Source: an uncultured Clostridia bacterium
GTDB taxonomy: Bacteria; Bacillota; Clostridia; Oscillospirales; Ruminococcaceae
Assembly (NCBI GenBank): GCA_947627235.1
Contig: CANQVG010000009.1
Span: 2,376 to 66,375 of the forward strand
Direction: 5' to 3'
DNA: 64,000 bases
Below are positions 22,379-42,497 of this stretch, piece after piece. The notes beneath the pieces are model-generated. The model made no database searches and was not told the DNA's origin. It saw only the letters and a list, made by a program, of their open reading frames with translations. Position 1 is the first letter of the stretch, and the number at the start of each line of letters is the position of its first letter. The translations under genes and the position numbers were made by a program.

Positions 22379-22407
22379 TTGACACTAACCTTTCACTTTG
22401 CTATAAT
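22379..22407 (+). promoter_or_regulatory. perfect consensus sigma-A promoter at the head of the 20-kb locus
   Basis: TTGACA 22379-22384, a 17-nt spacer, then TATAAT 22402-22407. Confidence 0.75.
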
Positions 22408-22561
22408 ATAGACGATAAATCGCGATAATCTCAACTGAATATCTGCTTGTGAGAGCAAATATTTATTTTCCGTTTGTGAAAATAGTATTTGCTTAAACTC
22501 GTTTATGAGGTTTGCACTATTGATTTGTGCAGATTGCACAAACACGCCCTGTGGAGGAAAG

Positions 22562-23239
22562 ATGGCAGAAATACTTACGGCCCGAAACGTTGTTCGGGAT
22601 TTTATCATCGGCGACGGAAGCGTGGTTCACGCGCTGAAAGGTGTGAACATTGATGTTGCCGAGGGCAGGCTGACGATTTTAAAAGGACGTTCCGGTTCCG
22701 GCAAGACAACGCTTATAAATATGCTCGGCGCGCTCGACAGACCGACCTCGGGCGAGGTCATCTTTGACGGGCAGGATATCACAAAGCTCAGCGATTCAAA
22801 GCGCGATGAGATAAGACGCTATCAGATGGCTTTTGTGTTCCAGTCGGTGGCGCTTATGAGCTCGATGACGGCTTATGAAAACGTCGACTTCGGGCTGCGT
22901 CTCGCGGGATTCCCTCTCGACAAAAGAAAGGAACGCGTCACGAAGTGTCTTGAAGAAGTCGGACTCGCAAAGAGAATGAATCACCGACCCGGAGAGCTTT
23001 CTGGCGGCGAACAGCAAAGAGTCGCAATAGCGCGCGCTCTTGCCCACGAGCCGAAGATAATCTTTGCCGACGAACCTACCGCCGAGCTTGACTCGGGTAC
23101 GAGTCACCACATCGTCGAGCTTTTCAAGACGCTCGTCCTCGACGAGCATATGACAATAGTAATGACCACGCACGACGTGAGCCTTTTGGAAATCGCCGAC
23201 CGCGTTTATACTCTGGAGGACGGTGAGATAGTTGAGTAA
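22562..23239 (+). CDS. ABC transporter ATP-binding protein (LolD/MacB/FtsE class)
   Basis: The start is taken at [11 protein letters not shown] (GGAGGA RBS). Walker A is [10 protein letters not shown], the signature is [15 protein letters not shown] and Walker B is IIFADEPT. Confidence 0.88.
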
Positions 23240-24194
23240 AAAGAAGCAGAAAAAGCTCGAACACGAGCAGGAACTCATCGCCGAAAGCGAATACGCGATA
23301 GAATGTGAGAACCTCGTAAAAATTTACAAGACCGACCAGATTGAGGTCGTGGCGCTTCAGGGACTCGATTTGCAGGTCAAAAAGGGCGAGCTTGTCGCGA
23401 TAGTAGGCACATCGGGCTCCGGCAAATCGACGCTTCTGAATATGCTCGGCGGGCTCGACAAGCCCTCCGCGGGAAGCCTCACCGTAAACGGCAGGAATCT
23501 TCTGAAATTCACCGAGGAAGACTACATGATTTATAAGCGCAACACCGTCGGATTCGTCTGGCAGAACAATGCGCGAAACCTCGTACCGTATCTGACTGCC
23601 GTGCAGAACGTCGAGCTGCCGATGCTTTTGCAGGGGCAGAAAGAGAGAAGGGCGAGGGCGCTCGAGCTTCTCGAAGCCGTGGGACTCTCGAACAGAATAA
23701 ATTCCCGTCTCGACCAGATGTCGGGCGGCGAGCAGCAAAGGGTCGCGATTGCGATTTCGCTCGCGAATAACCCCGCGATTCTTTTGGCGGACGAACCTAC
23801 GGGTTCGGTGGATACGAAAACCTCTGACCAGCTTTTGCAGGTCTTTAAGGATATAAACGAAAAGCGCGGCGTGACCGTGGTCATAGTTACCCACGACCTG
23901 CGCCTCGCAAAGCAGGTCAACCGTGTTGTCGCCATTCGCGACGGCAGAACTTCGAGCGAGATAATCAAAAAATCTCACGCCGAGATAATGAGCGAATCGA
24001 AGGGCTGGAACAGCGGTGATGCGCAGGAAACCGAGGAGCAGGAGGTTTCGGAGGAGTTGGTTGTTCTGGACAGAACAGGACGCCTGCAAATTCCGAAAGA
24101 GTACCTCGAAGCGCTTGACATCAAGGGCGGCTCTAAGGTAAAGGCGGATCTTGATCTTGAGCAGGAGCGAATTTATATCCACAAAGCTCAATAA
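23232..24194 (+). CDS. ABC transporter ATP-binding protein (LolD/MacB class) with ~90-aa C-terminal extension
   Basis: The TTG start overlaps the upstream gene by 8 nt. Motifs are [25 protein letters not shown] and ILLADEPT. The C-terminal tail has an acidic linker followed by an AbrB/SpoVT-like segment (VVLDRTGRLQIPKEYLEALDIKGGSKVKA). Confidence 0.85.
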   Translation: MSKKKQKKLEHEQELIAESEYAIECENLVKIYKTDQIEVVALQGLDLQVKKGELVAIVGTSGSGKSTLLNMLGGLDKPSAGSLTVNGRNLLKFTEEDYMIYKRNTVGFVWQNNARNLVPYLTAVQNVELPMLLQGQKERRARALELLEAVGLSNRINSRLDQMSGGEQQRVAIAISLANNPAILLADEPTGSVDTKTSDQLLQVFKDINEKRGVTVVIVTHDLRLAKQVNRVVAIRDGRTSSEIIKKSHAEIMSESKGWNSGDAQETEEQEVSEELVVLDRTGRLQIPKEYLEALDIKGGSKVKADLDLEQERIYIHKAQ

Positions 24195-24262
24195 CATTCT
24201 TTATAACCCTAAAAACGGAGAAAATATATCGCACTCCAAATACAACGAAAGGTGGAATTACA

Positions 24263-27181
24263 GTGAAAGACAAAATGTTCAGGCGTCTGGTGTCGCTCGT
24301 TCTGGTTTTGGCGATGACAGTGCCGACATTGGGAACTGTTTACGCGGACGACAGCGCGTCTGCGGCCGCACAGCCCGTCAGAGAAACATCGGCGCAGTCG
24401 CTTGACGACGAAAACAGAGCCCGCACCTACAGCACCTATTATGACAAGCACGTAGACGACCCGAGACCTAGCGGTCAGTTCGTCATTAAGGGAACCGACT
24501 ATGTATCGGTTTCGGATGATTCCGGAGCCTACGTCGGCGAACTTGAGGGCAGAGAGGCGCTTATATGGCCCGAGGCTACCGGCACAGTGGAATATACTGT
24601 TAATATCGACACTGCCGGAGTTTACGCGATGAAGATGGATTACTGCGCCATTCCGAGCGCGGCGAACAATATCGAGTTCGGCGTGCTGATAGACGGCGAA
24701 AGCCCGTTCGACACCGCGACCCGTATCTCGCTCAGCAAGGTATGGGTAGGTTCGGAGAAGTCGTATGAATACGACGATGCCGGTAATCGCGTCTTTAAGA
24801 AAGACTCCCACGGCAACCAGATAAGACCTACCCTCGCCGAGGGCAGCGGTTGGCAGACCTCTTACTTCAAGGACGGCGACGGTCTGTTTATCGGCCCTCT
24901 GGGCTTCCACTTCACAAAGGGTACTCACACCATCACAATAACCTCCGAAAAAGCGAGATTCGCCATCGGTGAAATCGTGATAGGCAACCCCGAAGAGCTT
25001 AAGCCTGCCGCGAGCGCAGAAAACGTTACCGCGGATGAATCCAAGGCGTCGCAGTCTACCGGAATCTTCGTCTCGATTGAGGGCGAGGATCCCCTGAGCG
25101 CGTCAGATATCACACTTTATCCCACCTACGACCGTTCTACATACCTGACCTCCCCTTCCGACCCCACCAAGATGATTTACAACACCATCGGCAAGGAAAA
25201 CTGGAAGGATTCGGGTCAGAGCGTAACTTGGAATTTCAAGATGGATAAAGCCGGCTGGGTCAAGATAGGCATAAGAGCCAAGCAGGACCAGATGCGCGGT
25301 CTCTATTCCAACCGTACCCTTTACATCGACGGAAAGATCCCCTGCAAGGAAGCGGAACAGATTAAGTTCTACTACTCTACTGTCTGGGATTGCGTATCTC
25401 CCACCGATGCCGACGGCAACGTCCTTTACTTCTATCTTGACGCCGGCGACCACACCCTCACCCTTGAGGCTATGCCGGGAGAGATAGGCGATATCATGCG
25501 TCAGCTTGACGACATCGTCTATTATCTCAACAGCTATTACAGACAGATACTCCAGATAACCAGTCCGTCCCCCGACGAAAACAATACATATATGGTTCAC
25601 AAGCAGATCAACGGTCTTCTTGAGGACTTTGAAAAGTATGCAAATCTTCTTCGCAGCCTTAAGTCGGAGATAGAGGTTCTCGCAGGAACCGAGGGTACCG
25701 AGGCGGTTTCGCTCGATACTATGGCGAAGCTTCTCGAAAGGCTTGTAAAGCGTCCCGACGACATTCCGAGCTGTCTGGGTCAGATAAAGGATAATATTTC
25801 ATCCCTTTCTCAGTGGATGACCGACTACAGAAGCCAGTATCTCGAGGTCGACGTTATCGAGCTTGTCTCTGCCGACAACGATTTCAGCCCTGTCAAGGAA
25901 AAGGGCTTGCAACAGCTCAAGTTCAGCTTCCTTTCTTTCATCGGCTCCTTCTTCGAGGATTACAACGTCCTTTCGGACGAGGATAAATCCGCCCTCAACG
26001 TCTGGGTTTCGCTCGGACGCGATCAGGCGCAGATAGTCAAAGAGCTCGTCGATTCCTACTTTGTCGAGGATACCGGAATAGCGGTCAGCATCAACCTTGT
26101 TCAGGGCGGTATACTTGAATCCACCCTCGCAGGCAAGGGACCTGACGTCGTACTCTTCGTCGGAGGCGACCTCCCGATTCAGCTCGCTGCCCGTGACGTT
26201 TTGGTCGATATCTCCAAGTTCCCCGACTACAAGGAGGTCACAAAGAGATTCGCGCCCAACGTTATGACGCTCTACACTTATCAGGACGGCGTCTACGGTC
26301 TGCCCATTTCTCAGGGCTTCTCGATGATGTTCACCCGCGACGATATCCTCCAGTCCTTCGGCTTTGAAAAGGGTCCGGACACTTGGACGGAGCTTATTGA
26401 TATGCTTCCTACTTTCCAGAGAAGCTATATGGGCGTCGGCTTTAATTTCGACGTCTTCGGAACCTTTATGGTTCAGCGCAATATGGGCTACTACAACTCT
26501 AACAAGACCCAGACGATATTCGATTCTCAGCCGGCGGTAGAGGCGTTCGAGATGTGGACCAAGTTCTACACCACCTACAGCTTCGAGCAGACGTTTGACC
26601 AGTTCACACGTTTCCGCACCGGTGAGTATCCGATAATCATTACCGGCTATACTTTCTATAACCAGCTCTATATGGCGGCTCCCGAAATCCGCGGTCTTTG
26701 GAGCTTCAACCTCATCCCCGGCACTCTCGAGGAGGACGGCACACTTAACCGCTCCACCACCTCTTCTTCTTCCGGCGGAATCATCTTCTCCAAGCTTAGC
26801 GAGGAACAGCAGGCAGATGCTTGGGAGCTTATCAAATGGTTCACCAGCGCCGAGACGCAGTCGGAATACGGCCGCTCGATAGAGGCTCTGCTCGGTCCTC
26901 TCGGACGATTCGACACCGCCAACGTCGAGGCTCTCGGTCAGCTTGCTTGGAGTCAGTCGGAGCTTGCGCTTATCCACGAACAGATGAGCTACACCGTGGA
27001 TATAGACATAATCCCCGCGACATATATCGTAACGAGAGGCATTACCAACGCTTTCAGAGAGACGGTAAACCTCAGTACGAACCCGCGCGATACACTCATT
27101 CAGTATAACCGCGATACAAACGATGAAATCATCAGAAAATATGAGGAACTCGGTATAGATATCGAGATTCCGGAGGAATAA
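24263..27181 (+). CDS. 972-aa secreted fusion: two CBM6/35-like modules + helical region + family-1 extracellular solute-binding domain
   Basis: GTG start with an AAAGGTGGA RBS. The signal peptide ends VYA/DD and has no lipobox Cys. CBM-like blocks are GTVEYTVNIDTAGVYAMKMDYCAIP and SIEGEDP...SVTWNFKMDKAGWVKIGIRAKQ. The C-terminal ~400 aa resemble a sugar SBP (LNVWVSLGRDQAQIVKELV...YQDGVYGLPISQ). Confidence 0.65.
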   Translation: MKDKMFRRLVSLVLVLAMTVPTLGTVYADDSASAAAQPVRETSAQSLDDENRARTYSTYYDKHVDDPRPSGQFVIKGTDYVSVSDDSGAYVGELEGREALIWPEATGTVEYTVNIDTAGVYAMKMDYCAIPSAANNIEFGVLIDGESPFDTATRISLSKVWVGSEKSYEYDDAGNRVFKKDSHGNQIRPTLAEGSGWQTSYFKDGDGLFIGPLGFHFTKGTHTITITSEKARFAIGEIVIGNPEELKPAASAENVTADESKASQSTGIFVSIEGEDPLSASDITLYPTYDRSTYLTSPSDPTKMIYNTIGKENWKDSGQSVTWNFKMDKAGWVKIGIRAKQDQMRGLYSNRTLYIDGKIPCKEAEQIKFYYSTVWDCVSPTDADGNVLYFYLDAGDHTLTLEAMPGEIGDIMRQLDDIVYYLNSYYRQILQITSPSPDENNTYMVHKQINGLLEDFEKYANLLRSLKSEIEVLAGTEGTEAVSLDTMAKLLERLVKRPDDIPSCLGQIKDNISSLSQWMTDYRSQYLEVDVIELVSADNDFSPVKEKGLQQLKFSFLSFIGSFFEDYNVLSDEDKSALNVWVSLGRDQAQIVKELVDSYFVEDTGIAVSINLVQGGILESTLAGKGPDVVLFVGGDLPIQLAARDVLVDISKFPDYKEVTKRFAPNVMTLYTYQDGVYGLPISQGFSMMFTRDDILQSFGFEKGPDTWTELIDMLPTFQRSYMGVGFNFDVFGTFMVQRNMGYYNSNKTQTIFDSQPAVEAFEMWTKFYTTYSFEQTFDQFTRFRTGEYPIIITGYTFYNQLYMAAPEIRGLWSFNLIPGTLEEDGTLNRSTTSSSSGGIIFSKLSEEQQADAWELIKWFTSAETQSEYGRSIEALLGPLGRFDTANVEALGQLAWSQSELALIHEQMSYTVDIDIIPATYIVTRGITNAFRETVNLSTNPRDTLIQYNRDTNDEIIRKYEELGIDIEIPEE

Positions 27182-27197
27182 GGAGGGAGGAATAAAT

Positions 27198-28145
27198 ATG
27201 GCAAAGGAAAAAACCGCAGAAAGAAAGAAGCCCATTGAACCGGGCAGCTGGCGCCACACTCTCCACGAAATGAAGATGAATCAGGCGTGCTACTGGATGA
27301 TGCTTCCTTTCTTCGCACTCTTCACATTCTTCACAGTCATACCGGTCGTCATGTCACTGCCTCTCGGTCTGACCAGCTTCAACCTCGTTCAGTTCCCGCG
27401 CTACATAGGTCTTCAGAATTTCTATTCGCTCTTCGTAAACGACGACGTCTTCCTTATAGCTGTAAAGAATACGCTCATCTTTGCGATATTCACGGGTCCG
27501 TTCTCCTATGTGCTCAGCTTTATACTCGCGTGGCTCATTAACGAGATGAATCCTTTCCTGAAGGTATTCTTCACCTTCGTCTTCTATGCCCCGTCGATGA
27601 CCCCGTCGGCATTCGTTATCTGGCAGCTCGTCTTCTCGGGCGACTCCTACGGATACCTTAACTCGGTGCTTCTCGACCTCGGCATAATCAACACCGCCAA
27701 ACAATGGCTTACCGACGTTACCTATATGATGACAGTTGTCATCATAGTCCAGCTTTGGACTTCAATGGGCGCGGGCTTCCTTGCTCTGCGCGCCGGATTC
27801 CAGGGAATCGACACCTCGCTTTACGAGGCGGGCGCCATCGAAGGAATCCAGAACCGGTTCCAGGAGCTGTTTACCATCACAATCCCCGCGATGGGTCCCT
27901 CGCTTCTGTTCGCCGCCGTTCTTGCGATTTCCGGAGCGTTTACTGTCGGCTCGGTCGGCGCTGCCCTCTGCGGAATGCCGTCTACCGCCTACGCGGTTCA
28001 CACCATTATGAACCACGCGCAGGACTACGGCTCAATACGTTACGAGATGGGTTACGCCTCGGCAATATGCTTCGTACTGTTCGCGGTAATGCTTATATGC
28101 AATAAGATAATCCGCGGAGTGCTGAGCAAATACACCGATAACTAA
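27198..28145 (+). CDS. carbohydrate ABC transporter permease (MalF/LplB-like)
   Basis: 315 aa with six TM segments and an EAA-loop context (YEAGAIEGIQNRFQELFTITIP). Confidence 0.85.
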   Translation: MAKEKTAERKKPIEPGSWRHTLHEMKMNQACYWMMLPFFALFTFFTVIPVVMSLPLGLTSFNLVQFPRYIGLQNFYSLFVNDDVFLIAVKNTLIFAIFTGPFSYVLSFILAWLINEMNPFLKVFFTFVFYAPSMTPSAFVIWQLVFSGDSYGYLNSVLLDLGIINTAKQWLTDVTYMMTVVIIVQLWTSMGAGFLALRAGFQGIDTSLYEAGAIEGIQNRFQELFTITIPAMGPSLLFAAVLAISGAFTVGSVGAALCGMPSTAYAVHTIMNHAQDYGSIRYEMGYASAICFVLFAVMLICNKIIRGVLSKYTDN

Positions 28146-28160
28146 AGGAGGGGAATATAA

Positions 28161-29138
28161 ATGGCTGAAACTTTAGTAAACAACGCCGCGATTACCGACT
28201 CGCTTGAAGCCGAGAACGCAAAGGCGTTAAAGAGGCTGAGAAAGCGTCAGAAGAAAAGAGGAAGCATAGAAAAAGCGAAAGTCAAGAAGTCAAAGGGCAA
28301 GCACATAAACGGCTCCCTCGGCGGCGATATCGCGATATTCATTCTCCTTGCGCTTCTGGGAATTTTCATGCTCTTCCCGCTCTATTATTCGATAATCCAG
28401 TCTTTCAAACCGATAAGCGAGCTGTTCGTATTCCCGCCCAAGCTCTACGTGCTTTCTCCTACGGGAGAAAACTTCTCGAACCTCTTTAAAGTTGCGGGCA
28501 ACCTCTGGGTTCCGTTCTCGAGATACGTGTTCAACTCGGTGTTCATCACCATAGTCATCACGCTTATGCACGTGTTCGTAGTTTGCTGCTGCGCATACTG
28601 CCTCTCGAAGTGCCGCTTCCCGGGATACAACTTCCTTAACCAGCTCATCGTAACCTCGATGCTCTTCACTTCGACCGCGACGTGGATTATGCAGTTCGTC
28701 GTTATGGCGAAAATGCATATGATCAATACCTACTGGGCGCTGATTCTTCCTTCCGTCGCCACTTCGATGGGACTTTACCTGATGCGTCAGAATATGTCGA
28801 CCATCAACGACGCCATAATCGACGCGGCAAAGGTCGACGGCGCGGGCGCGTTCCGCACCTGCTGGCAGGTTGTCATACCCAACCAGAAGCCTGCTATCGC
28901 AACCCTGATAATCTTCGTCTTCCAGGGCGCTTGGAACGTTCAGGGCGGCGCGCTGGTCTACAAAGAAGACCTCAAGACCCTGCCGACAATTATGTCGCAG
29001 ATAGCGGCCTCGGGTATCGCGAGACAGGGCATTATCTACGCATCCGCCGTCGTACTTATGATTCCTCCGCTTGTCATATTCCTCATTGCCCAGAGCAACG
29101 TTATGGAAACCATGGCCAACTCAGGTATGAAGGATTGA
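28161..29138 (+). CDS. carbohydrate ABC transporter permease (MalG-like) with ~55-aa basic N-terminal tail
   Basis: 325 aa. The EAA loop is IDAAKVDGAGAFRTCWQVVIP. The N-terminus is ...KALKRLRKRQKKRGSIEKAKVKKSKGK. Confidence 0.85.
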   Translation: MAETLVNNAAITDSLEAENAKALKRLRKRQKKRGSIEKAKVKKSKGKHINGSLGGDIAIFILLALLGIFMLFPLYYSIIQSFKPISELFVFPPKLYVLSPTGENFSNLFKVAGNLWVPFSRYVFNSVFITIVITLMHVFVVCCCAYCLSKCRFPGYNFLNQLIVTSMLFTSTATWIMQFVVMAKMHMINTYWALILPSVATSMGLYLMRQNMSTINDAIIDAAKVDGAGAFRTCWQVVIPNQKPAIATLIIFVFQGAWNVQGGALVYKEDLKTLPTIMSQIAASGIARQGIIYASAVVLMIPPLVIFLIAQSNVMETMANSGMKD

Positions 29139-29175
29139 TTCTTAAAACCAAAAATACAAAGAAAGGTGATAAGCG

Positions 29176-30846
29176 GTGAGAAAAATGAAAATCAAAAAGC
29201 TACTTAGTATACTGCTCGCTGCGGTTCTTGCCGTTATTATGATGTCGGCAACAGTAAGCGCGGTCGACCCGTATACCACATACAACTACGACGCTTGGTC
29301 CAACGCAATTCCCTCGCAGGCGGGCTATGAGGTAATAGCCACCTATAACGCGGGTACTATGCATCTTGAGCAGCTTTCCGACCCCGAGAGCGAGTTATTC
29401 ATCAGCGAAAATGAGCCGGCAAACCTGTCGGATATGAAGGACTTCTTCCTCTCGCCCAACAACGAATTTTATATAGTAGATACCGGCAACAACCGTGTAA
29501 TCAAAACCGACCTTGAATTTAACCTTCTTGCGTGCTACAAGACCTTCCCCGGAAGCACTTCAAAGCATATAGTGATTGACGAAGAAGGCAACGAAGTCGA
29601 GGTCGACGCCGATGAGCTCAAGTCTCCGTACGGAATCTTCGTCGACGAGAACGACGTAATGTATATCGCCGATAAAGACAATCAGCGCATAGTAAAGTGC
29701 GTTGAGGAGACAAAGACGAGCGCGAGAATACTCAACGAGTACTACCGTCCGGATACCGAGCTTTACGACTCAGTTTCATTCTACTGCACCAAGGTTCTGG
29801 TAGACGCCGCGAAGAACGTCTATGTAATCTGCCCCGCGGTCAACAAGGGCGCTATCATGTTCTCCGATTCCGGCTCTTTCATCGGCTACTACGGCGCCAA
29901 CCGAGTTGAGGTTACGGCCGAGGTCATAAGAAACAAGATCTGGAGAAAGATAGCCTCGGAAGAGCAGCTTGCCTCTCTGATAAGGACTACGCCTGTCGAA
30001 TACGCCAACTTCGATATTGATAAGGAAGGCTTCATCTGGACCGTAACCGAGGTCGCCAACGCCACTACCGACGCCGTCAAAAAGATGAACCCCGCAGGCT
30101 ACAACATCCTTGAAAGAACTGCCGACAATAACCAGTTCGGCGATCAGGTGTCTGTAACCTACAACGGCTCCACCTACGCCACCCGTCTGACAGATATATC
30201 TGTGTCGGACGAGGGATTTGTCAACATTCTCGACTACACCTCGGGCAGAATCTTCCAGTATGACGAACGCTGCAATCAGCTTCTGATATTCGGTTTCGAT
30301 CAAGAAGAACAGCGCGGCGGCTTCTACAACCCCAACGCCATTGAATCCTACGGAGACAATATATACATCCTCGACGGCAGAAACAACGATATCACGGTCT
30401 TCGGTCTGACCGAGTTCGGCAGATATGTACACGAAGCGATTGCGCTTCACAACAAGGGCCTTTACGAGGAAGCGTATGACATCTGGCAGGAGGTTCTCAA
30501 GCGCGACGGCGGCTACTATATGGCGCTCGTCGGAACCGCCAAGGCTCTCTACAATCAGGGCGATTACGAAGGCGCTATGAAATACTCGAAGCTCGCCTTC
30601 ACGGATACCGACTACGACAAGGCTTTTGAAGCCAACCGTCAGGAATCCCTAAGAAAGAACTTCACACTCTACGTTGTCATAATAATAATCGTTGCCATTG
30701 CGTGGATCACGATAAACATTCTCAAGAAAAAGAAAAAGATTCCCGAAAAGCTTATAGCTACGGGCGTTTCCAAAGTCGCTGAAAAGGGCAAAACCTTGAT
30801 TCAGAATATTGCAGAAAACGCTAAGAAAGGGGGCAAGGGTAAATGA
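29176..30846 (+). CDS. type-I membrane protein: signal peptide, NHL-repeat beta-propeller, TPR, C-terminal TM and basic tail
   Basis: NHL-like repeats (FYIVDTGNNRVIKTD, MYIADKDNQRIVKC, IYILDGRNNDITVF). A TPR-like region (YEEAYDIWQEVLKRDGGYYMALVGTAKALYNQGDYEGAMKY). The TM is FTLYVVIIIIVAIAWITINIL, followed by KKKKK. Confidence 0.55.
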   Translation: MRKMKIKKLLSILLAAVLAVIMMSATVSAVDPYTTYNYDAWSNAIPSQAGYEVIATYNAGTMHLEQLSDPESELFISENEPANLSDMKDFFLSPNNEFYIVDTGNNRVIKTDLEFNLLACYKTFPGSTSKHIVIDEEGNEVEVDADELKSPYGIFVDENDVMYIADKDNQRIVKCVEETKTSARILNEYYRPDTELYDSVSFYCTKVLVDAAKNVYVICPAVNKGAIMFSDSGSFIGYYGANRVEVTAEVIRNKIWRKIASEEQLASLIRTTPVEYANFDIDKEGFIWTVTEVANATTDAVKKMNPAGYNILERTADNNQFGDQVSVTYNGSTYATRLTDISVSDEGFVNILDYTSGRIFQYDERCNQLLIFGFDQEEQRGGFYNPNAIESYGDNIYILDGRNNDITVFGLTEFGRYVHEAIALHNKGLYEEAYDIWQEVLKRDGGYYMALVGTAKALYNQGDYEGAMKYSKLAFTDTDYDKAFEANRQESLRKNFTLYVVIIIIVAIAWITINILKKKKKIPEKLIATGVSKVAEKGKTLIQNIAENAKKGGKGK

Positions 30847-35093: not shown

Positions 35094-35107
35094 GGGAGGG
35101 ATATTGA

Positions 35108-36265
35108 ATGGCAACCGCAAAAGAAGAAAGACTGTTCGCCAAAGAGCGTGAAAAAGCTCTTAAAGAGCGCGCTAAGGCTTATAAAGCAGCCAAAAAGGCG
35201 GGTACTCTTGACGAACGCATTATCTCGCCCGAGCATATCAGATATATGCGCCGCAGAGCGATTATCAGCAAGGTTTGGCCCTTCTTCCGTTTCCTGATAC
35301 TGTTCGGCCTCTGCTTCGTAATTCTCTATCCCCTTATCTACATGTTTTCCACGGCATTCAGACCCAACGTTCAGATGAACGACCCGTCGGTCATCTGGCT
35401 GCCTAAGTCGTTTACCATCAGCAACATGATAGATGTCTGGGAGACTATGGACTTCGGTCCCACCCTCTGGAACACCATTAAGCTCAACATCGTCTGCTCA
35501 CTTCTCTCGGTAGTTGTATGCGCGCTCACCGGCTACGGTCTCGCGAGATTCAACTTCAAGGGAAAAGGTATCTGCTTCGCGCTGGTCATTATGCAGATAA
35601 TCGTTCCTCCGCAGATAACCGTTATACCTCTTTATCTGCAATATGCCTTCTTCAAGGGCTTCGGTCTTATAAAGCTTCTGCACGTTCTCGGTCTGAAACA
35701 GATTGTTTACAGCGCATCTCAGCAGCCCAAGCCCATTCAGGAGATTATGGATCCCGTAACCAACGCTGGTACGGGGCAGTGGTACGTTTCGCTCATCAAT
35801 ATTCCGATAGTTATGTATGCCCCCGCGATTTTCGCAAACGGCATCAAGTCGGGTCTGTTTATCTTCATCTTCCGTCAGTTCTTCCGCGGACTGCCGATAG
35901 AGCTTGAAGACGCCGCCTATCTCGACGGCTGCGGCCCGTTCAAGACATTTATCAGAATTATGGTTCCTAACGCTTCCACTTCGTTCCTCACGGTCTTCCT
36001 CTTCGCAATAGTCTGGTACTGGAACGACTTCTACGTGAGTTCGACGTTCTTCACGAGTAACCATACCGTCGCGCTTCAGCTGCGAAAGCTTTCGGATTCG
36101 CTCGACCAACGACTGTTCAGCGGTCAGCAGGTCGGCACGAGAAAGAAAATCGTCTGGCTTGAGTCAGGATGTCTTTTGTCAATAGCGCCGATTCTCGTTA
36201 TGTATGTGTTCTTGCAGAAATACTTCACCGAGGGTCTTGCAAGGTCCGGTCTTACCGGTATGTAA
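35108..36265 (+). CDS. carbohydrate ABC transporter permease (MalG-like) with basic N-terminal tail and an enlarged extracytoplasmic loop
   Basis: 385 aa. The N-terminus is KEERLFAKEREKALKERAKAYKAAKKAG. The EAA context is LEDAAYLDGCGPFKTFIRIMVP. Confidence 0.82.
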   Translation: MATAKEERLFAKEREKALKERAKAYKAAKKAGTLDERIISPEHIRYMRRRAIISKVWPFFRFLILFGLCFVILYPLIYMFSTAFRPNVQMNDPSVIWLPKSFTISNMIDVWETMDFGPTLWNTIKLNIVCSLLSVVVCALTGYGLARFNFKGKGICFALVIMQIIVPPQITVIPLYLQYAFFKGFGLIKLLHVLGLKQIVYSASQQPKPIQEIMDPVTNAGTGQWYVSLINIPIVMYAPAIFANGIKSGLFIFIFRQFFRGLPIELEDAAYLDGCGPFKTFIRIMVPNASTSFLTVFLFAIVWYWNDFYVSSTFFTSNHTVALQLRKLSDSLDQRLFSGQQVGTRKKIVWLESGCLLSIAPILVMYVFLQKYFTEGLARSGLTGM

Positions 36266-36278
36266 ATTTCAGTTTGCA

Positions 36279-36309
36279 AAGCCTGCCGTCTTTTACGGGC
36301 GGCAGGCTT
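36279..36309 (+). terminator. internal hairpin (weak terminator or processing/stabiliser site)
   Basis: A 10-bp stem (aagcctgccg / cggcaggctt) followed only by taaaatctt, with no clean T-run. Confidence 0.35.
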
Positions 36310-36350
36310 AAAATCTTAATATGGAAAAGTCTGCGGGAGTGTTGTTTAAA

Positions 36351-37949
36351 ATGAATAGATTTATAATAATGCTCCTCTGCGGGCTTATTTTGCTGTCGGG
36401 ATGCTCTTACGAAACTCCTTTGCAGACCGGCGCCGGCGAATTGTCGGACGCTGCATCACAAAGCCGGTCTGAAAGTGTCGGGCAAACAACGGTTTCAGAA
36501 TATCAAAGCACGTCGGAAACAACCGTTTTGCCGGAGCCGCAGGTCCCGCACTATCAGGAGATAGCGGCAGTTAAGGTCGACTACGAACAGACGGAGGTTC
36601 GTCAGTTCATTGAGGCTGAGGACGGAATCATAGGCGGCGGCGCCGAAAAGACCGACTCCCGCGAGGGGTATTCGGGCAGCGGATGCGTCTTTGGAATATT
36701 CGGCGGCGGAAGCGTTGTGCTTGAAGCACAGATACCCGCGCCGCAGCATTACAGCATAACCGTAAGGGCTGCGTCCGACACGCAGGCGTCCGCGAGCTTC
36801 ACGGTAAACGGCGTATCCCGAGGAGAATTTACGGTCTCGGGCAGCGGCGACTTCGAGGCGGTAAGGTTTGACAACATCTACCTGACAAAGGGGACCGTGC
36901 AATTCGGCTTTACGGATTTCAGCGCCGATATATACCTTGACTGCATACTGATCGAGGATTCGGAGGACGTTCTGAATCTGAGCTATAAGACAGGCGGCGC
37001 GCTCTCTAACAGGTATAGCGACGAAAGCGCAAAAAAGCTTTACGGCTACCTGATGTCCTGCTATGGAAGCAGGGTTTTAAGCGGGCAGCAGTGCTCGCAG
37101 GGCAGCAATTCCGAGCTTGACGCCGTGTATGAGTTGACAGGAAGATACCCCGCGATACGCTTCGGCGAGCTTATGGACTATACTGTCGGCGGCGACACGG
37201 GAGACATCGAGCTTGCGCTTGACTGGGCAAAGTCGGGAGGAATAGTAGGCTATGTCTGGAACTGGCCGATGGCAGGTTCGGTATATCAGAGCCGTACCGC
37301 TTTCGACCTTGAAAAGGCGGTTACTTCTTTAGACATCGCCGCTATGGAAGACGGCGCTCTCGCTATGAGGTATGACGCCGGAGACATTTCCGCGGAGACC
37401 CTCGCTGTGATAGACGGTATCGACAGGGTTGCCCGGCAGCTTTTGAGACTGCATGATGCGGGAGTTGCGGTGATTTTCAGACCGCTGCCTGAGGCGAGCA
37501 GCGGGCAGTTCTGGTGGTCAAAGAGCGTCGAAAGCTATCTTTGGCTTTATCGCCTCATATATGAGCGTATGACCCTTTACTGGGACCTCGGCAATCTTAT
37601 CTGGGTCTGGAACGGTCAAAACGCAGAATGGTACGTCGGCGACAGTTTTGCCGACATAATTTCGCTCGACATTTATTACCCCGAGAGCGAAGCTCCCGCT
37701 CAGCCGAGCGGAATAAACTTTATGCTCGCGGCTGCAAAGATTTCAGCCGAAAAGCCCGCAGCCATAAGCGAATGTTCCGACCTGCCGAACCCCGACAGCA
37801 TCGCCGTTGACAGGGCATACTGGAGCTTCTGCTCCGCTTGGACCGGCGACTATGCAGTCGGCGGTAAATATATGCAGGACAGCGAGTGGGTGCAGTTTTA
37901 CAACAGCGAAATAGTTATCGCTAAGGATGAAATTGAATACAATGGGTAA
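36351..37949 (+). CDS. lipoprotein: CBM6/35-like module + GH26-like catalytic domain
   Basis: The start is taken at MNRFIIMLLCGLILLSGC (lipobox). The CBM-like block is FIEAEDGIIGGGA...GYSGSGCV...HYSITVRAAS. GH26-like motifs are VIFRPLPEASSGQFWW, LIWVWNGQ, ISLDIYYPE and AISECS. Confidence 0.6.
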   Translation: MNRFIIMLLCGLILLSGCSYETPLQTGAGELSDAASQSRSESVGQTTVSEYQSTSETTVLPEPQVPHYQEIAAVKVDYEQTEVRQFIEAEDGIIGGGAEKTDSREGYSGSGCVFGIFGGGSVVLEAQIPAPQHYSITVRAASDTQASASFTVNGVSRGEFTVSGSGDFEAVRFDNIYLTKGTVQFGFTDFSADIYLDCILIEDSEDVLNLSYKTGGALSNRYSDESAKKLYGYLMSCYGSRVLSGQQCSQGSNSELDAVYELTGRYPAIRFGELMDYTVGGDTGDIELALDWAKSGGIVGYVWNWPMAGSVYQSRTAFDLEKAVTSLDIAAMEDGALAMRYDAGDISAETLAVIDGIDRVARQLLRLHDAGVAVIFRPLPEASSGQFWWSKSVESYLWLYRLIYERMTLYWDLGNLIWVWNGQNAEWYVGDSFADIISLDIYYPESEAPAQPSGINFMLAAAKISAEKPAAISECSDLPNPDSIAVDRAYWSFCSAWTGDYAVGGKYMQDSEWVQFYNSEIVIAKDEIEYNG

Positions 37950-38019
37950 ATGATATTTATTATATTACTTACCGTATAAATATATTTTACAATATTCGCC
38001 GCGGAATATAAATCAGCTA

Positions 38020-38048
38020 TTGATTTATTCCGGAATTTCTGGTAAAAT
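38020..38048 (+). promoter_or_regulatory. candidate internal promoter in an AT-rich gap, overlapped by palindromes
   Basis: TTGATT 38020-38025, a 17-nt spacer, then TAAAAT 38043-38048. The inverted repeat ggaatataaatca / tgatttattcc (38003-38031) and the palindrome ttccggaa (38028-38035) overlap the -35 element. Confidence 0.45.
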
Positions 38049-38095
38049 AAAAATAATTTCAATATGGTCGTTTTACTTTATTTAGGAGGAACGTT

Positions 38096-39145
38096 ATGAA
38101 ACTGTCAAGGATTGTTTCGCTCGCGCTCGCTGCGGCGTTTGCGCTGACTGCGCTGAGCGGCTGTTACTTTCTGCCCGAGGAAGAGGAGCTTTTGGAGGCT
38201 CCCGTCGTAAAGGCGAGCGAAGTGTCATACACCACAACCACCGCCGAGCTGAAGGACATCACCCGTCAGGTGCTGACTCCGGGAACAATAGCTTCCGGTA
38301 CCAAATACGACGCCCGTTTTTCCGATGTCGGCGGCAATATTAAAGCGGTATACGTCTCTGCCGGAGATATGGTCGAGAAAGGGCAGCTTCTTGCCGAGTT
38401 CGATACATACGAGCTTGACCAGCAGATTAAGCTTATGGAGATGCAGATTACCCGCGAAAAGCTTGAATACGAGATTGCCGTTGAAAAGCACGAGTCTGAG
38501 AACGTGAAGGCAAAAGAGCAGCTCGACGTAGACCTTATGCAGCTCGACCTTGACAAGCTCTATGCCGAAAAGGAGGCAGCGAAGCTTTATTCGCAGGTTT
38601 CGGGAACGGTTTCTTATGTGATGACCTGCTCTCCGGGCGACTGGGTCAACCCCGGTGTGACCGTCGTGACTGTAATAGACATAACCGACCTCTATATTGA
38701 GATAAATCCCAACAACGAAGTTCCGGAATTTCTCATAGGCAGACCTATAACCATTCGCTACAACGGCGAATACTTCGACGGCACAATTGTTAGGAACAAG
38801 ACCGGACGTCAGTGGGACGCCGAAGCTAAAGGCGCCCTGACAGACGATGCGGGCGAGGATATTCTTGCCGAGCAGTCCGAGTCGATAGTCGTCAAGTTCA
38901 ACGACATAATCCCCGAGTCCTCCGCTGTCGGAAATATAGCGGATACTATTCTGATACTTGACAAGCGCGAGAACGTCATCGTAATCTCCGCAAACCTCGT
39001 GAAAAAGGTGGATGGGGTTGATTGCGTATATGTATTCAAGGACAACGAAAGAATAAAGGTCAACGTTACTCTGGGTCTCAAGAGCGGGTCGCTCGTTGAA
39101 ATAACCTCCGGTCTGGAGCCCGGCGATGAGGTTATCATTCGCTGA
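38096..39145 (+). CDS. lipoprotein membrane-fusion (HlyD/MacA-type periplasmic adaptor) protein
   Basis: Lipobox LTALSGC. It has a biotinyl-lipoyl-like hairpin (VSAGDMVEKGQLLAEFD), a coiled-coil segment and a C-terminal beta-barrel region. Confidence 0.72.
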   Translation: MKLSRIVSLALAAAFALTALSGCYFLPEEEELLEAPVVKASEVSYTTTTAELKDITRQVLTPGTIASGTKYDARFSDVGGNIKAVYVSAGDMVEKGQLLAEFDTYELDQQIKLMEMQITREKLEYEIAVEKHESENVKAKEQLDVDLMQLDLDKLYAEKEAAKLYSQVSGTVSYVMTCSPGDWVNPGVTVVTVIDITDLYIEINPNNEVPEFLIGRPITIRYNGEYFDGTIVRNKTGRQWDAEAKGALTDDAGEDILAEQSESIVVKFNDIIPESSAVGNIADTILILDKRENVIVISANLVKKVDGVDCVYVFKDNERIKVNVTLGLKSGSLVEITSGLEPGDEVIIR

Positions 39146-39193
39146 CCGTTACAATACGACATCCCTTTGCCGACCATTTCAGGAGGACACTAA

Positions 39194-42013
39194 ATGCTGA
39201 CACTATTACTGCGGAAAATGCGGAATACAAAGTGGATGGTCATATGTCTGTTAATCGGCTTCATTATGGCCACCGCTATGACCAGCACAATTCCGATATA
39301 TATGCATGCGTCGCTTCAGCGCATGCTCATCAAGGATATGCAGGCATATCAGGAAGATAAAGGTGAATATCCCGGCGTTTATGCCGTTTCCAAGACGATA
39401 CTCGGCGGAACAAGCCCGAAAAATCAGCGTGCAAACGTCAACAACGTATATGCCCGCGCGGCGAACCGCTTCAACGACCTTTTGGTGCCTTATCTCACCT
39501 ATAAGTGCTTTACCTGCGACTCTTATCTGTATGTCTCGAATATAGAGAGCGAATCGGGAGAGGTCTCGATGCTCAAGCTCGGTGCGATGACCGATATTGC
39601 CGACCATATCAAAATAGTTTCGGGCAGAATGTTTGAACCGGGACAGGACGAGAACGGCGTATATGAGGTCATCTGTACCGAACGCGCTCTTCAGCTCGGT
39701 CAGGTTACGACCGATCAGGTCTATGAGCTTAAGAATATGATTGAGAAAGACAGGGGCAGTGTAAAGGTAAAAATAGTAGGCGTTTTCGAGATAGCCAACG
39801 AGACCGATACATACTGGTCGGAGGGAATGGGCGACTATGAAAATACCGTTTTCTGCGACTTTAACAACCTCATAGACGAGATGATTTTCACGGGAGCCGT
39901 CAGCCTTAACTCGGTGGACTGCCGCTTTATCATCGACTATCAGAATATAGACATGAACCTCATCGAGCATGTGCGCAACTGCTTTAAGTCTCAGAAAGAG
40001 GTCTACAGCGAAGAAAACACCACTTTTGAAGTCCCCGCTCAGGAGGTTCTGGAGGAATACGCCGGCAAGGCAGCTTCCTTAAGATATATCCTTCTGATGC
40101 TCGACATACCCGTTGTGCTGATGCTGGTATTTTACCTGTTTATGGTTTCACAGCTCAATATCGAGTCGGAGCGCAATGAAATAGCAATGCTCAAATCTCG
40201 CGGCGCTTCTTCGTGGCAGATTATGCGAATCTATGCCTATGAGACCCTTATTCTCGGAGCGATTTCCGCGATTGTAGGACCGTTTGTCGGACTTGGGCTC
40301 TGCAATATACTTGGCGTCTCCAACGGCTTTATGGAATTTGTCAACCGTCCCGCGCTTCACGCGAAGCTCTCGTGGGCGCCGTTTGTCTACGCGATAGCCG
40401 CCGTTGCGGTGTTCTTCGTAACCACCCTCGTGCCGATAATTCCCGCGTCCCGCGTTTCGATAGTAGCGCATAAGCAGTCGAAGGCTCACGAGCAGAAAAA
40501 GCCTTTCTGGCAGCGCTCCTTCCTCGACGTTATCTGCGTTGTACTGCCGGTAGTCTGGCTCTGGTGGTACAACAAAACCAACGAAAATCTCATTCGTCAA
40601 GGCATCGTCGATACTTCCTCGACTATGAACCCGCTGATGTTCGCGGCTTCAACGGTGTTTATCCTCGGCGCGGGTCTTCTGTGCGTGAGGATTTACCCCT
40701 ACTTTATCAGACTCGTCTACGCTATAGGCCGCAAGAGATGGTCTCCCGCGGCGTATATCTCGCTCAATAACATCGGCCGCTCCTCAACAGGGCGTGAGAA
40801 GTTTATAATGATATTCCTCATACTCACGGTTGCTCTCGGAATCTTCTCGGCAAACACCGCCCGAGCGATCAACCGCAATACCGAAGAGAGAATCCGTTAT
40901 AACCTCGGCGCCGACGCGGTTATCACTGAGGCTTGGAAGACCAGCCGCGTCAAGATATATGACGAGGAAGCCGGCGAGGAAACCTCGACCACTCAGTATA
41001 CCGAGCCGGAATTTGAGCGTTATTCGAGTCTTCCGGGCGTGGAGCTTGCGACTCCCGTCTTCCAGCGCGACACCGTCCAGTTGAGATTCAACGACTCAAC
41101 CCAGACCGACGTCCACCTTATGGCGATAGTCCCGGACCAGTTTGCGCAGGTCGCGTGGTTCCGCTCCGACCTCCTGCCGGTACACATAAACTACTACATC
41201 AACGCTTTGAGCGAGTGTCAGGACGGCGTAATCATCTCAAAGTCCTACGCCGACAAGAAGAAAGTGTCGCTCGGCGACGTAATCGAGGTCAAGTGGGCGC
41301 GCAACGGTTGGTTTGAGGCGACCGTCGTCGCGGTAGTTGAATTCTGGCCGAGCCTCAATCCCTACGAAAAGAACTCTGCCGGCGATTACAGAGACTTCGT
41401 GGTGATGAACTACGACTACGTCAACATAATGACGATAACCGAACCGTACGAGGTCTGGCTTGACCTTGAGGATAATGCGGACATCGGGGCGTTCTATCAG
41501 GGAGTTGTAGACAACGACATCACCGCGACCCGTCTTGACGTTGCTTCTCAGCTCATAGTATCGTCCAAGACCGATGCCGTGCTTCAGGGCGTGAACGGCG
41601 CGCTGACTCTCGGCTTCATCACGATAATGGCGATGTGCTTTATAGGCTTCCTCATCTACTGGATACTCTCCATAAAGGGCAGAACACTGCAATTCGGTAT
41701 CCTTAGGGCTATGGGTATGTCGTTCAGAGAGATTATTTCGATGATAATTTACGAGCAAGTGCTCGTTTCGGGAGTTTCGATATTCCTGTCCATCATCATC
41801 GGCGGCATAGCTTCGGACATCTTTGTGCCGCTCTTCCAGGTTCTTTACAACGTCACCGATCAGGTACCGCCTTTCAAGGTTGTGTCCCAGAGGAGCGACT
41901 ACTACAAGCTTTATGCCATTGTAGCGGTAATGCTCATCGTCGGATTTGTTGTAATCGCGAGACTCATCAAGCAAATCAATATCAACAAGGCTCTTAAACT
42001 CGGTGAGGATTAA
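39194..42013 (+). CDS. 939-aa ABC permease with two FtsX domains (MacB/YbbP-like, internally duplicated)
   Basis: Two FtsX signatures (MLKSRGASSWQIMRIYAYETLILG and ILRAMGMSFREIISMIIYEQVLVSG), each preceded by a large extracytoplasmic domain. Confidence 0.82.
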   Translation: MLTLLLRKMRNTKWMVICLLIGFIMATAMTSTIPIYMHASLQRMLIKDMQAYQEDKGEYPGVYAVSKTILGGTSPKNQRANVNNVYARAANRFNDLLVPYLTYKCFTCDSYLYVSNIESESGEVSMLKLGAMTDIADHIKIVSGRMFEPGQDENGVYEVICTERALQLGQVTTDQVYELKNMIEKDRGSVKVKIVGVFEIANETDTYWSEGMGDYENTVFCDFNNLIDEMIFTGAVSLNSVDCRFIIDYQNIDMNLIEHVRNCFKSQKEVYSEENTTFEVPAQEVLEEYAGKAASLRYILLMLDIPVVLMLVFYLFMVSQLNIESERNEIAMLKSRGASSWQIMRIYAYETLILGAISAIVGPFVGLGLCNILGVSNGFMEFVNRPALHAKLSWAPFVYAIAAVAVFFVTTLVPIIPASRVSIVAHKQSKAHEQKKPFWQRSFLDVICVVLPVVWLWWYNKTNENLIRQGIVDTSSTMNPLMFAASTVFILGAGLLCVRIYPYFIRLVYAIGRKRWSPAAYISLNNIGRSSTGREKFIMIFLILTVALGIFSANTARAINRNTEERIRYNLGADAVITEAWKTSRVKIYDEEAGEETSTTQYTEPEFERYSSLPGVELATPVFQRDTVQLRFNDSTQTDVHLMAIVPDQFAQVAWFRSDLLPVHINYYINALSECQDGVIISKSYADKKKVSLGDVIEVKWARNGWFEATVVAVVEFWPSLNPYEKNSAGDYRDFVVMNYDYVNIMTITEPYEVWLDLEDNADIGAFYQGVVDNDITATRLDVASQLIVSSKTDAVLQGVNGALTLGFITIMAMCFIGFLIYWILSIKGRTLQFGILRAMGMSFREIISMIIYEQVLVSGVSIFLSIIIGGIASDIFVPLFQVLYNVTDQVPPFKVVSQRSDYYKLYAIVAVMLIVGFVVIARLIKQININKALKLGED

Positions 42014-42034
42014 CCTTATAAAGGGCGTAATATA

Positions 42035-42457
42035 ATGCTTTCTAAAATCACCTACTTATCAGACCGGCACCCTGTCGCTTTCGGCTTTGCGCTTTTCGGT
42101 ATGCTGAGCATTGTGCCGGAGCTGGCGATGCTGGCGGCGTCGCTCGTAGGTCTCGATATCACATACGTAATAATCGCCTATGCCTTCGCGCTTCAGCTTC
42201 TTTTGTGCTTCGCCGTTGAGCGAACAATTCACCTGATGCTGCCGTTTATAGTCTGTATAATCAGCTTTGTTTTAATGGACGTTTTCTACTTTGCGTCGAT
42301 GATGCTTAGCGGTGTGGTTCCTCCGGGAATAGCTGCGCTTATTATGGCGTTGGGAATGAGCGGCGGAGAGGTCTTTGTGACCGAGGTCATCGGAATAGTG
42401 GCGTCGCTGATATTCTATGCGGTGTTTGTATTCATAAGGGCGCTTTTCAGAAGATAA
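42035..42457 (+). CDS. small 4-TM membrane protein, unknown function
   Basis: 140 aa, almost entirely hydrophobic, and the last gene before the terminator. Confidence 0.45.
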   Translation: MLSKITYLSDRHPVAFGFALFGMLSIVPELAMLAASLVGLDITYVIIAYAFALQLLLCFAVERTIHLMLPFIVCIISFVLMDVFYFASMMLSGVVPPGIAALIMALGMSGGEVFVTEVIGIVASLIFYAVFVFIRALFRR

Positions 42458-42497
42458 AAATAAATCGGGAACTGCTTTCGGCGTTCCCGATTTATTT
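42456..42497. terminator. bidirectional terminator closing the 20-kb locus and the convergent two-component genes
   Basis: aaaaataaatcgggaac...gttcccgatttatttt. Confidence 0.8.

Follow-up and report, generated by a model that had tools for sequence, protein, structure and literature searches.

A conserved eight-gene cassette of a putative glycan importer and the genes of a split MacB-type pump in an uncultured Clostridia bacterium

The locus described here recalls two kinds of ATP-binding cassette (ABC) systems: the CUT1 sugar importers of Gram-positive bacteria and the type VII pumps of the MacB type. A MalK-type ATPase encoded in trans is common for such importers in Firmicutes. Among the pumps, YknWXYZ of Bacillus subtilis also needs YknW, a protein of the Yip1 family (PMC4887032). 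We analyzed a 64-kb stretch of DNA (hereafter the window) from an uncultured Clostridia bacterium of the Ruminococcaceae (assembly GCA_947627235.1, contig CANQVG010000009.1, positions 2,376 to 66,375). Its list of open reading frames (ORFs) has 14 consecutive ones on the + strand, from 22505 to 42457, all at the coordinates that a preliminary description of this single-strand locus had given. The locus has three layers and is not one uniform machine: a core of eight genes, a four-part pump, and a lineage-specific lipoprotein joining a carbohydrate-binding module (CBM) of family 35 to a glycoside hydrolase (GH) of family 26. With moderate confidence, we read it as a nested composite of a glycan import cassette, a split MacB-type pump and an add-on enzyme.

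Relatives of the locus were sought with its DUF5696 protein as anchor, taking one genome per species. At least 584 species had a relative; 79 species-level genome loci were kept, and the 14 window proteins were searched against all of their ORFs. Every full-length locus had the same eight genes, in the same order and on the same strand: a solute-binding protein (SBP), two permeases, a protein with NHL and TPR domains (NHL-TPR), a Yip1-family protein, the DUF5696 protein and again two permeases. In relatives at 74%, 59% and 56% identity, gene mapping recovered the complete gene order of the locus; at 35–40% identity only the SBP, the first two permeases, NHL(-TPR), Yip1, DUF5696 and the last two permeases were kept. 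The core order was the same in about 75 Oscillospiraceae/Ruminococcus species, and also on plasmid pNP243 of Butyrivibrio fibrisolvens (29% identity) and on a plasmid of Paenibacillus cellulosilyticus (22% identity). On pNP243, the gene of a cytoplasmic GH43 overlapped the start of the SBP gene; two further lipoprotein SBPs and a YesM/YesN-type sensor pair were also encoded there. The Paenibacillus cassette had a UgpC gene directly 5′ and NHL-TPR fused to Yip1. This neighborhood conservation shows that the adjacency is not due to chance, with the eight central genes co-conserved in order across deep divergence. The preliminary description had treated all 14 genes as equal parts, which does not hold: the GH26 lipoprotein, an adaptor, a double-FtsX permease and a small transmembrane (TM) protein were absent from most relatives. 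Its domain calls were each matched by Pfam and NCBIfam, and its placement of the locus in the envelope agrees with the signal peptides, two lipoboxes and TM maps, which put all products except two ATPases there.

By gene content we distinguished class A (13 loci: ATPases, core, GH26, adaptor and double FtsX), class B (18 loci, including Ruminococcus albus AR67: ATPases and core) and class C (29 loci, including R. callidus ATCC 27760: core only). The full architecture was found in at least 13 species-level genome loci and in 6 further metagenome contigs. A neighbor-joining tree of six core proteins grouped classes A and B in one clade, with class A nested inside, and showed two secondary losses of the ATPases (L037 and L047). 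A protein search with DUF5696 returned only unnamed or “DUF5696 domain-containing” proteins, from Oscillospiraceae metagenome-assembled genomes.

The first core gene encodes a giant secreted binding protein of 972 aa (24263..27181, +), with a signal peptide without a lipobox. It was recognized by Pfam and modeled with AlphaFold2 at a predicted local distance difference test (pLDDT) score of 85. SBP_bac_1/8 domains were matched at residues 591–869 (E = 2e-22 and 1e-14). The model had beta-sandwiches at 73–240 and 269–403, a helical bundle, and a C-terminal SBP of the CUT1 oligosaccharide type. By Foldseek and phmmer, the SBP domain was closest to Lin1841, the beta-1,2-glucooligosaccharide binder of Listeria, and to MalE-type SBPs (fold match 3e-18). 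The signal peptide of this binding protein is of type I, and neither the binding protein nor DUF5696 had a lipobox in any lineage checked; the ordinary SBPs adjoining the cassette in Butyrivibrio carried lipoboxes. The NHL beta-propeller and TPR protein (29176..30846, +) had a signal peptide, a single C-terminal TM segment (498–516) and a basic cytoplasmic tail. Its end overlapped by 4 nt the start of the Yip1-family polytopic membrane protein (30843..31478, +; Yip1 E = 1.7e-15). Yip1 was present in every locus of the cassette set, and NHL-TPR was fused to it in three lineages (Paenibacillus, L008 and L010). From the missing lipoboxes, these fusions, and the overlaps of NHL-TPR with Yip1 and of DUF5696 with the third permease gene, we infer that the NHL-TPR type-I membrane protein and Yip1 may tether or organize the unanchored binding protein and DUF5696 beside the permeases.

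The secreted DUF5696 protein (31501..34065, +; Pfam E = 2.6e-137) has 854 aa and a signal peptide. Its AlphaFold2 model (pLDDT 78, predicted template modeling score 0.80) showed a disordered acidic linker at residues 22–117, an N-terminal beta-sandwich, a (beta/alpha)8 barrel and a C-terminal beta domain. Foldseek matched the model to GH129 (5opq 9e-25, 5wzp 7e-20) and GH101 (~1e-14; 2zxq 2e-14) and, further off, to GH36/GH31 (1e-10 to 1e-8). The structural alignments with GH129 and GH101 had 9–13% identity, and no phmmer, sequence or profile match to any PDB chain was found, the only Pfam family being DUF5696. Residues D311, D655, R664, Q722, H726, N737 and W784 were invariant out to 22% identity, and an acidic residue was retained at 715–717, ~60 residues past D655. 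Counting strands in the DSSP assignment, we place D655 behind strand 4 of the modeled barrel, and we take the ~60-residue spacing to recall that between nucleophile and acid/base in GH36. Going by the model, DUF5696 is probably a retaining glycosidase of the GH101/GH129 fold, with these positions as candidate catalytic residues. The family comprised 5314 clusters at 50% identity, and in all loci inspected the DUF5696 stop codon overlapped or abutted the start of the third permease gene. No mention of DUF5696 or PF18952 was found in the searchable literature, so that the earlier view of a module with no assigned function stands as far as papers on this family are concerned.

The length of DUF5696 varied between lineages. 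It reached ~1085 aa in L026, L045 and L090, and ~930–950 aa in class C loci. Instead of the acidic linker, the longer forms have an N-terminal extension that is particular to the lineage and in L090 includes a FIVAR domain, which suggests alternative modes of surface attachment.

The four permeases all matched the BPD_transp_1 family. The first pair consists of perm1, which is MalF/UgpA-like with UgpA matches (27198..28145, +), and perm2, which is MalG/UgpE-like with an EAA loop (28161..29138, +). The second consists of the MalF-like perm3 (34065..35093, +), whose start overlaps the DUF5696 stop codon, an overlap or abutment kept in relatives, and the MalG-like perm4 (35108..36265, +). A regular expression found the EAA motif in perm2, perm3 and perm4, and not in perm1. 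The two pairs are very divergent, at 21–29% identity. No MalK/UgpC/MsmX-type ATPase with an OB/TOBE domain was found in the locus or in the 64-kb window. The preliminary description had noted this, correctly for the genes in cis here, but in Paenibacillus the cassette opens with a UgpC that has OB_MalK and TOBE domains and lies directly 5′ in cis.

Accessory enzymes came to light when flanking ORFs from the different loci were clustered. A GH95 without signal peptide was encoded 77–476 nt 3′ of perm4 in about 14 loci of classes B and C; these loci include L009, L028, L034–L036, L039, L043, L051, L059, L064 and L082. The presence of this cytoplasmic member of an alpha-L-fucosidase/galactosidase family suggests that the oligosaccharides imported in those lineages contain alpha-L-fucose or alpha-L-galactose. 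The earlier statement that the locus has no cytoplasmic enzyme is therefore valid in cis here, but not for the ~14 relatives with a downstream GH95 or for Butyrivibrio with its GH43. In the window, the lipoprotein with CBM35 and GH26 (36321..37949, +; probable start 36351; lipobox LLSGC) is endo-beta-mannanase-like. Its GH26 domain had E = 2.9e-34 over the full model, and both CBM35 and GH26 aligned with the fungal endo-beta-1,4-mannanase 3zm8 (1e-44). GH26 was found in class A, L009 and L032, and was absent from class B and C loci. GH26 also recurred beside the adaptor-permease pair (divergently oriented in L164–L176) or the cassette, with further cases in L155, L032 and L009. As these arrangements are unlike that of the window, they hint at a link of GH26 with the module beyond class A.

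Seen as a polysaccharide utilization locus (PUL), the locus has transporter and GH26 genes, a DUF5696 that is enzyme-like by fold only, and no regulator gene in cis. Judging by gene content, the cassette behaves like the transport heart of a glycan-utilization locus with varying helper enzymes, and the earlier proposal of glycan capture, processing or transport fits the parts found. A cassette acting on an envelope or capsule glycopolymer of the cell itself, in remodeling or recycling and not on dietary glycans, would match the lack of a cytoplasmic catabolic enzyme in the window and the near-uniform cassette in species whose accessory enzymes differ. NHL, TPR and Yip1 are atypical of nutrient uptake, and some loci have PGA_cap, MBOAT and AlgX-like neighbors. 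However, cytoplasmic GH95/GH43, surface GH26 and the sugar-sensing YesM/YesN pair recur beside the cassette, the CBM35-like modules come with an oligosaccharide-type SBP, and the hosts are known fiber degraders; we regard this alternative as very improbable.

Two ATPases, both of the LolD/MacB class, precede the core. The start of atpA (22562..23239, +; ABC_tran E = 4e-35; all motifs intact) is most likely Met20 at 22562, and not 22505 as in the mechanical ORF, given a GGAGG ribosome-binding site, 225-aa homologs and conserved leader elements inside the longer ORF. The second, atpB (23232..24194, +), also has intact catalytic motifs and carries an AbrB/MazE-like C-terminal tail of ~75 aa. The best NCBIfam matches were LolD (for atpA) and MacB, below the equivalog cut-offs, with MetN and ProV close behind LolD. 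After the GH26 gene follow a MacA/YknX-like lipoprotein membrane-fusion adaptor (38096..39145, +; HlyD_D23, Biotin_lipoyl_2 and RND_mfp; lipobox LSGC) and a fused double MacB-type permease of 939 aa (39194..42013, +; FtsX twice, a weak ADOP match). From its TM map, the latter has two FtsX modules and two extracytoplasmic domains of ~250 aa each; MacB_PCD was detected in homologs, and no sequence or profile match to solved structures was found. The last gene encodes a small polytopic membrane protein (42035..42457, +) without a family match, kept in close relatives only.

Orthologs of these pump genes were contiguous on the P. cellulosilyticus plasmid NZ_CP054609.1 (245606-251165; L093), in the order ATPase, adaptor, double FtsX, ATPase. 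The window atpA had 54% identity to the first ATPase and atpB 60.5% to the last, tail included, the latter being its closest annotated relative. The adaptor had 23% identity, and the double FtsX had 29% identity to the 971-aa Paenibacillus permease over the full length (E = 1e-154). In actinomycetes, atpB-like genes flank giant FtsX genes. From this gene order and orthology, atpA, atpB, the adaptor and the double FtsX are recognizable as one four-part pump of the MacB/YknXYZ type, here split around the cassette. A search with atpB for outgroup context was saturated by orthologs of at least 82% identity. The tail of atpB (23952-24194) contains the AbrB/MazE-like swapped-hairpin motif VVLDRTGRLQIPKEYLEAL and recurs in the Paenibacillus and Streptomyces orthologs; it might act in dimerization or regulation. 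In L093, a sugar-type SBP lipoprotein of 520 aa is encoded 5 nt after the pump unit. It had no BLAST similarity to the giant SBP, and gives an independent second case in which this pump subfamily goes together with a binding protein.

We further scanned metagenomes with an alignment of the permease. Of the 80 loci obtained, 57 had enough sequence: 6 were class A-like, 30 were of a type that we call B-prime and 21 were solo. In B-prime loci, the cassette is followed after ~260 nt by adaptor and permease, with no GH26. Their cassette proteins were 85–93% identical to those of R. albus-group class B loci, and all 30 probably come from a single abundant species of the human gut. Solo loci had the adaptor-permease pair and no cassette in at least 4 kb upstream, and in 20 of the 21 the locus, which extends up to 10 kb to each side, was free of ABC ATPase genes. 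No adaptor-permease unit observed in Oscillospiraceae adjoined an ATPase gene, and the 64-kb window had no LolD-like ATPase besides atpA and atpB. The ATPase genes head the cassette operon in the 13 class A and 18 class B loci, and two deep clades, A and B-prime, have the adaptor-permease pair directly next to the cassette.

Our first working model, in which the ATPases power the MalFG pairs, was demoted by the contiguous Paenibacillus pump unit and by the ATPase-less adaptor-permease units. It persists as the main rival, possible though unlikely: atpA and atpB would drive the two MalFG pairs as a non-orthologous replacement of UgpC, either alone or while also driving the double FtsX. Both genes lie directly 5′ of the SBP gene, in the slot that UgpC takes in Paenibacillus, the catalytic motifs of both ATPases are intact, and there are two ATPases and two permease pairs. 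The 18 class B loci keep the ATPases with the cassette and have no FtsX gene nearby. Nucleotide-binding domains of the same sequence class serve some type I importers, as the scores of MetN and ProV near LolD recall. If the dual case were true, one LolD-class ATPase pair would energize a type I importer together with a type VII pump. Against this reading stands the contiguous MacB-type unit formed by the orthologs. The EAA loops of perm2, perm3 and perm4 are essentially identical in loci with and without atpA/atpB, which argues weakly against a switch of ATPase partner and does not settle the matter. Moreover, L037 and L047 kept the cassette after losing the ATPases, and we know of no case of a CUT1 permease using a LolD-class ATPase.

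The opposite alternative, which is quite unlikely in our view, has no coupling at all. Pump and adjacent two-component system would be an ordinary YknXYZ/MacAB efflux system for envelope stress or antimicrobial peptides, interleaved with the cassette by rearrangement. This is suggested by the adaptor-permease pair, which has its own promoter, travels with a histidine kinase and a regulator, and is alone in the 21 solo metagenome loci. The L093 pump unit is 150 kb away from the UgpC-bearing cassette of the same plasmid, and most cassette-bearing species have no pump genes nearby. Mere interleaving is, however, at odds with ATPase genes that, across deep divergence, come first in the cassette operon, preceded by one and the same conserved operator, in 13 class A and 18 class B loci, and with adaptor-permease pairs that abut the cassette in two separate clades. 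The sugar-type SBP 5 nt after the Paenibacillus pump unit and the recurrence of GH26 beside the adaptor-permease pair in a different arrangement also speak against it.

The layout of the locus bears on whether its genes are one unit. Its 5′ boundary is an intrinsic terminator of the upstream gene (22225..22251, +; a 10-bp stem with 9 GC pairs, then a T-run). Next comes a consensus sigma-70 promoter, TTGACA-17-TATAAT with an extended TG upstream (22379..22407, +). It matched at 12 of 12 positions and was perfect, as previously claimed; it was also the only such promoter within the 64-kb window, for which ~0.02 chance occurrences were estimated. Both hexamers were kept in 9 related class A loci. 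The bidirectional intrinsic terminator reported for the 3′ end was likewise recovered at 42457..42498 (−23.6 kcal/mol, z = −6.2, an A-tract before and a T-tract after the hairpin), by folding, since a simple terminator scan overlooked it. The gene junctions were, in order, −8, 68, 16, 15, 37, −4, 22, −1, 14, 55, 146, 48 and 21 nt, leaving a single AT-rich gap of 146 nt and all remaining junctions between −8 and +68 nt. The range given before, −8 to +85 nt, was right at its lower end and for the gap, and its upper value came from taking the second Met of GH26 as start.

If, as first proposed, the 14 products formed one obligate surface machine from a single transcript, one would expect what is seen here: genes on the same strand with tight junctions, a single perfect promoter and a single terminator. 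No terminator was detected 3′ of GH26, all four YknWXYZ component types are present, Yip1 included, and the full order is retained in at least 13 species. We nevertheless consider this improbable. GH26, adaptor, permease and small protein are missing from most cassette loci, and the internal promoter region is conserved. Yip1 is retained without pump genes nearby, and is fused to NHL-TPR, not to a pump part. In L004–L007, the gene of the biotin transporter component BioY, in some cases together with one for a GNAT acetyltransferase, interrupts the junction between perm4 and GH26, which is thereby shown to be a soft boundary.

The internal promoter candidate, TTGATT-17-TAAAAT with an extended −10 (TG), lies at 38020..38048 (+) within the 146-nt AT-rich gap. 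A gap of 150–300 nt with TGnTAtAAT was found 5′ of the adaptor gene in class A, B-prime and solo loci. This conserved gap with an extended −10 promoter indicates that the adaptor-permease pair is its own transcription unit, which tends to adjoin the cassette. In L004, L006, L116, L123 and L164 a TTGTGCA half-site lies 5′ of the adaptor promoter; it is not in the window. Directly downstream of the locus are a histidine kinase (42527..43969, −; 2 TM segments, an extracellular domain of ~140 aa, HAMP, HisKA and HATPase) and an OmpR-type response regulator (43953..44627, −; Response_reg and Trans_reg_C). Most class A loci had this pair 3′ of the permease, with varying orientation, and the kinase adjoined the permease in L002, L006/7, L011, L014, L015, L020 and L021.

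The ~150-nt leader of the operon contains a conserved hairpin and a perfect palindrome. The hairpin (22453..22495, +) has the arms AAGCAAAUA ... UAUUUGCUU, invariant in 11 loci, and a loop of varying length, at times with an insertion. It was rejected as an RNA element, the covariation being too weak (2 pairs), and an Rfam scan of the whole locus matched no family. The palindrome is an 8-3-8 repeat, TTTGTGCA-GAT-TGCACAAA (22524..22542, unstranded), occurring only once in the window. About 20 class A and B loci had one TTTGTGCA-N3-TGCACAAA copy each, 20–130 nt 5′ of the atpA start, against an estimated ~0.03 chance matches per 22-kb locus. L023 and L032 had a second, more distal copy, and in L037 the palindrome sits 5′ of the SBP gene. 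Changes in its arms were non-compensatory, which favors a protein-binding DNA site, and from its sequence and position the palindrome is probably the operator of a regulator encoded elsewhere. The locus was said earlier to have no regulator; this is correct in cis, but beyond it an operator-like palindrome is conserved before atpA.

Our preferred reading of a glycan importer with a split pump and an added enzyme would work as follows. The ancient eight-gene cassette would capture, trim and import a glycan. The secreted, anchor-free binding protein and the DUF5696 enzyme would act at the cell surface beside the two MalFG-type permease pairs, with NHL-TPR and Yip1 as a possible membrane tether or organizer, and the product oligosaccharides would enter through the permeases. 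These would be powered by a MalK/MsmX-type ATPase encoded elsewhere, in cis only in Paenibacillus. The atpA and atpB genes would head the cassette operon under the consensus promoter and palindromic operator, and the adaptor-permease pair would be its own transcription unit at the tail, beside the two-component system. Such a split arrangement would tie pump activity to cassette expression. The CBM35-GH26 lipoprotein would add cleavage of the mannan backbone in this lineage.

Several observations weigh against this picture. The 18 class B loci have atpA-atpB and the cassette, no adaptor or permease within 8–10 kb, and unrelated flanks (AdhE, PGA_cap, a dockerin protein, a divergent STAS gene or an Rnf operon); taken alone, they suggest that the ATPases serve the MalFG pairs. 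The ATPases of B-prime loci were deduced from close relatives, their 5′ ends lying outside the sequence seen. DUF5696 is linked to glycosidases through its fold alone, and its catalytic residues are candidates. The accessory enzymes (GH26, GH95 and GH43) vary by lineage and so do not point to one substrate. Finally, the binding protein had been called CBM-CBM-SBP; the SBP part of this call was upheld, but the two CBM domains are weak CBM35 matches (E = 2e-4) and two modeled beta-sandwiches.

A bolder extension, which we offer tentatively and to which we assign a low probability, is that cassette and split pump are one undescribed system, joining a type I sugar importer, through co-regulation and physical coupling at the cell surface, to a type VII mechanotransmission pump of the MacB type. 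The ATP-driven movements of the pump would then do extracytoplasmic work for glycan use. FtsEX is known to actuate wall hydrolases. By analogy, the pump would feed or release the polymer, actuate or position the unanchored binding protein, or act on DUF5696 or GH26. It is even conceivable that a single pair of LolD-class ATPases drives both permease types, and NHL-TPR-Yip1 would be a new principle for tethering surface proteins without lipid anchors in Gram-positive bacteria.

A few observations concern the surroundings of the locus. Upstream, a 599-aa secreted protein without Pfam match (20379-22178) has its own terminator and is weakly conserved upstream of the locus among class A relatives. 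Its C-terminus, PPTG followed by a hydrophobic stretch and KKH, resembles a sortase sorting signal. At 45987-47552 an N-terminal HTH_3 (XRE-type) domain is fused to a full M18 aminopeptidase, which is unusual. A gene of the choloylglycine (bile-salt) hydrolase family at 13135-14106 (− strand) is consistent with a gut-dwelling host, and the samples of the relatives came from rabbit, deer, ruminant and human gut.

Carriers of the cassette include the major fiber degraders R. albus, R. flavefaciens, R. callidus and B. fibrisolvens, together with abundant human-gut relatives. Since cultured, tractable hosts exist, the ideas put forward here are directly testable. DUF5696 gains a concrete, testable assignment as a surface glycosidase of the GH101/GH129 fold, and the cassette suggests a way in which binding proteins and enzymes without an anchor might be kept at the membrane of Gram-positive cells. 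The genes of MacB-type pump ATPases wired into a sugar-importer operon raise the question of cross-talk between two mechanistically different ABC classes. In the literature searched, we found no description of an eight-gene cassette with two permease pairs or an anchor-free giant SBP, of NHL-TPR-Yip1 and DUF5696 in such a cassette context, or of pump ATPase genes inside an importer operon.

Compared with described systems, the locus resembles Gram-positive CUT1 PULs (MalEFGK2/UgpBAEC) in its SBP_bac_1/8 protein, in its MalF/MalG-like permeases with EAA loops, in the surface and cytoplasmic glycoside hydrolases nearby, and in an ATPase that is often located elsewhere (the shared MsmX/MsmK of Firmicutes). 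It departs from them by a single giant, unanchored binding protein with ~570 extra N-terminal residues, by two very divergent permease pairs, by the obligatory NHL-TPR, Yip1 and DUF5696 between these pairs, and by an operon without a regulator in cis that is headed by ATPases of another ABC class. In Gram-positive CUT1 importers, a lipid anchor or a TM segment holds the SBP at the membrane; the one encoded here has no lipobox. DUF5696 is like GH129 and GH101 in its modeled fold, and unlike them in having no detectable sequence similarity and in being always encoded inside a transporter operon, with a stop codon that overlaps a permease start.

The pump shares with Bacillus YknWXYZ and MacAB a LolD/MacB-class ATPase, an adaptor, and an FtsX-type permease with an extracytoplasmic domain. 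It differs by two distinct ATPases, one with an AbrB-like tail, by a permease that is fused double (939 aa), and by genes that are split around another operon. Yip1 is comparable to YknW by family only, and follows the cassette here, not the pump. An FtsX-type permease adjoining an OmpR-type two-component system is also found in BceAB-BceRS; unlike there, the locus has an adaptor, two large extracytoplasmic domains instead of one, and a kinase with a ~140-aa extracellular domain and HAMP. The two domains, the adaptor and the kinase, which is not intramembrane-sensing, rule out a Bce-type reading. The parts are each of a known kind: the importer is CUT1, the pump MacB-type and the fold GH-D-like. 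The locus had been said to fit no standard template, which is true of the composite, itself undescribed, but not of the pump, which is recognizably MacB-type and contiguous in Paenibacillus.

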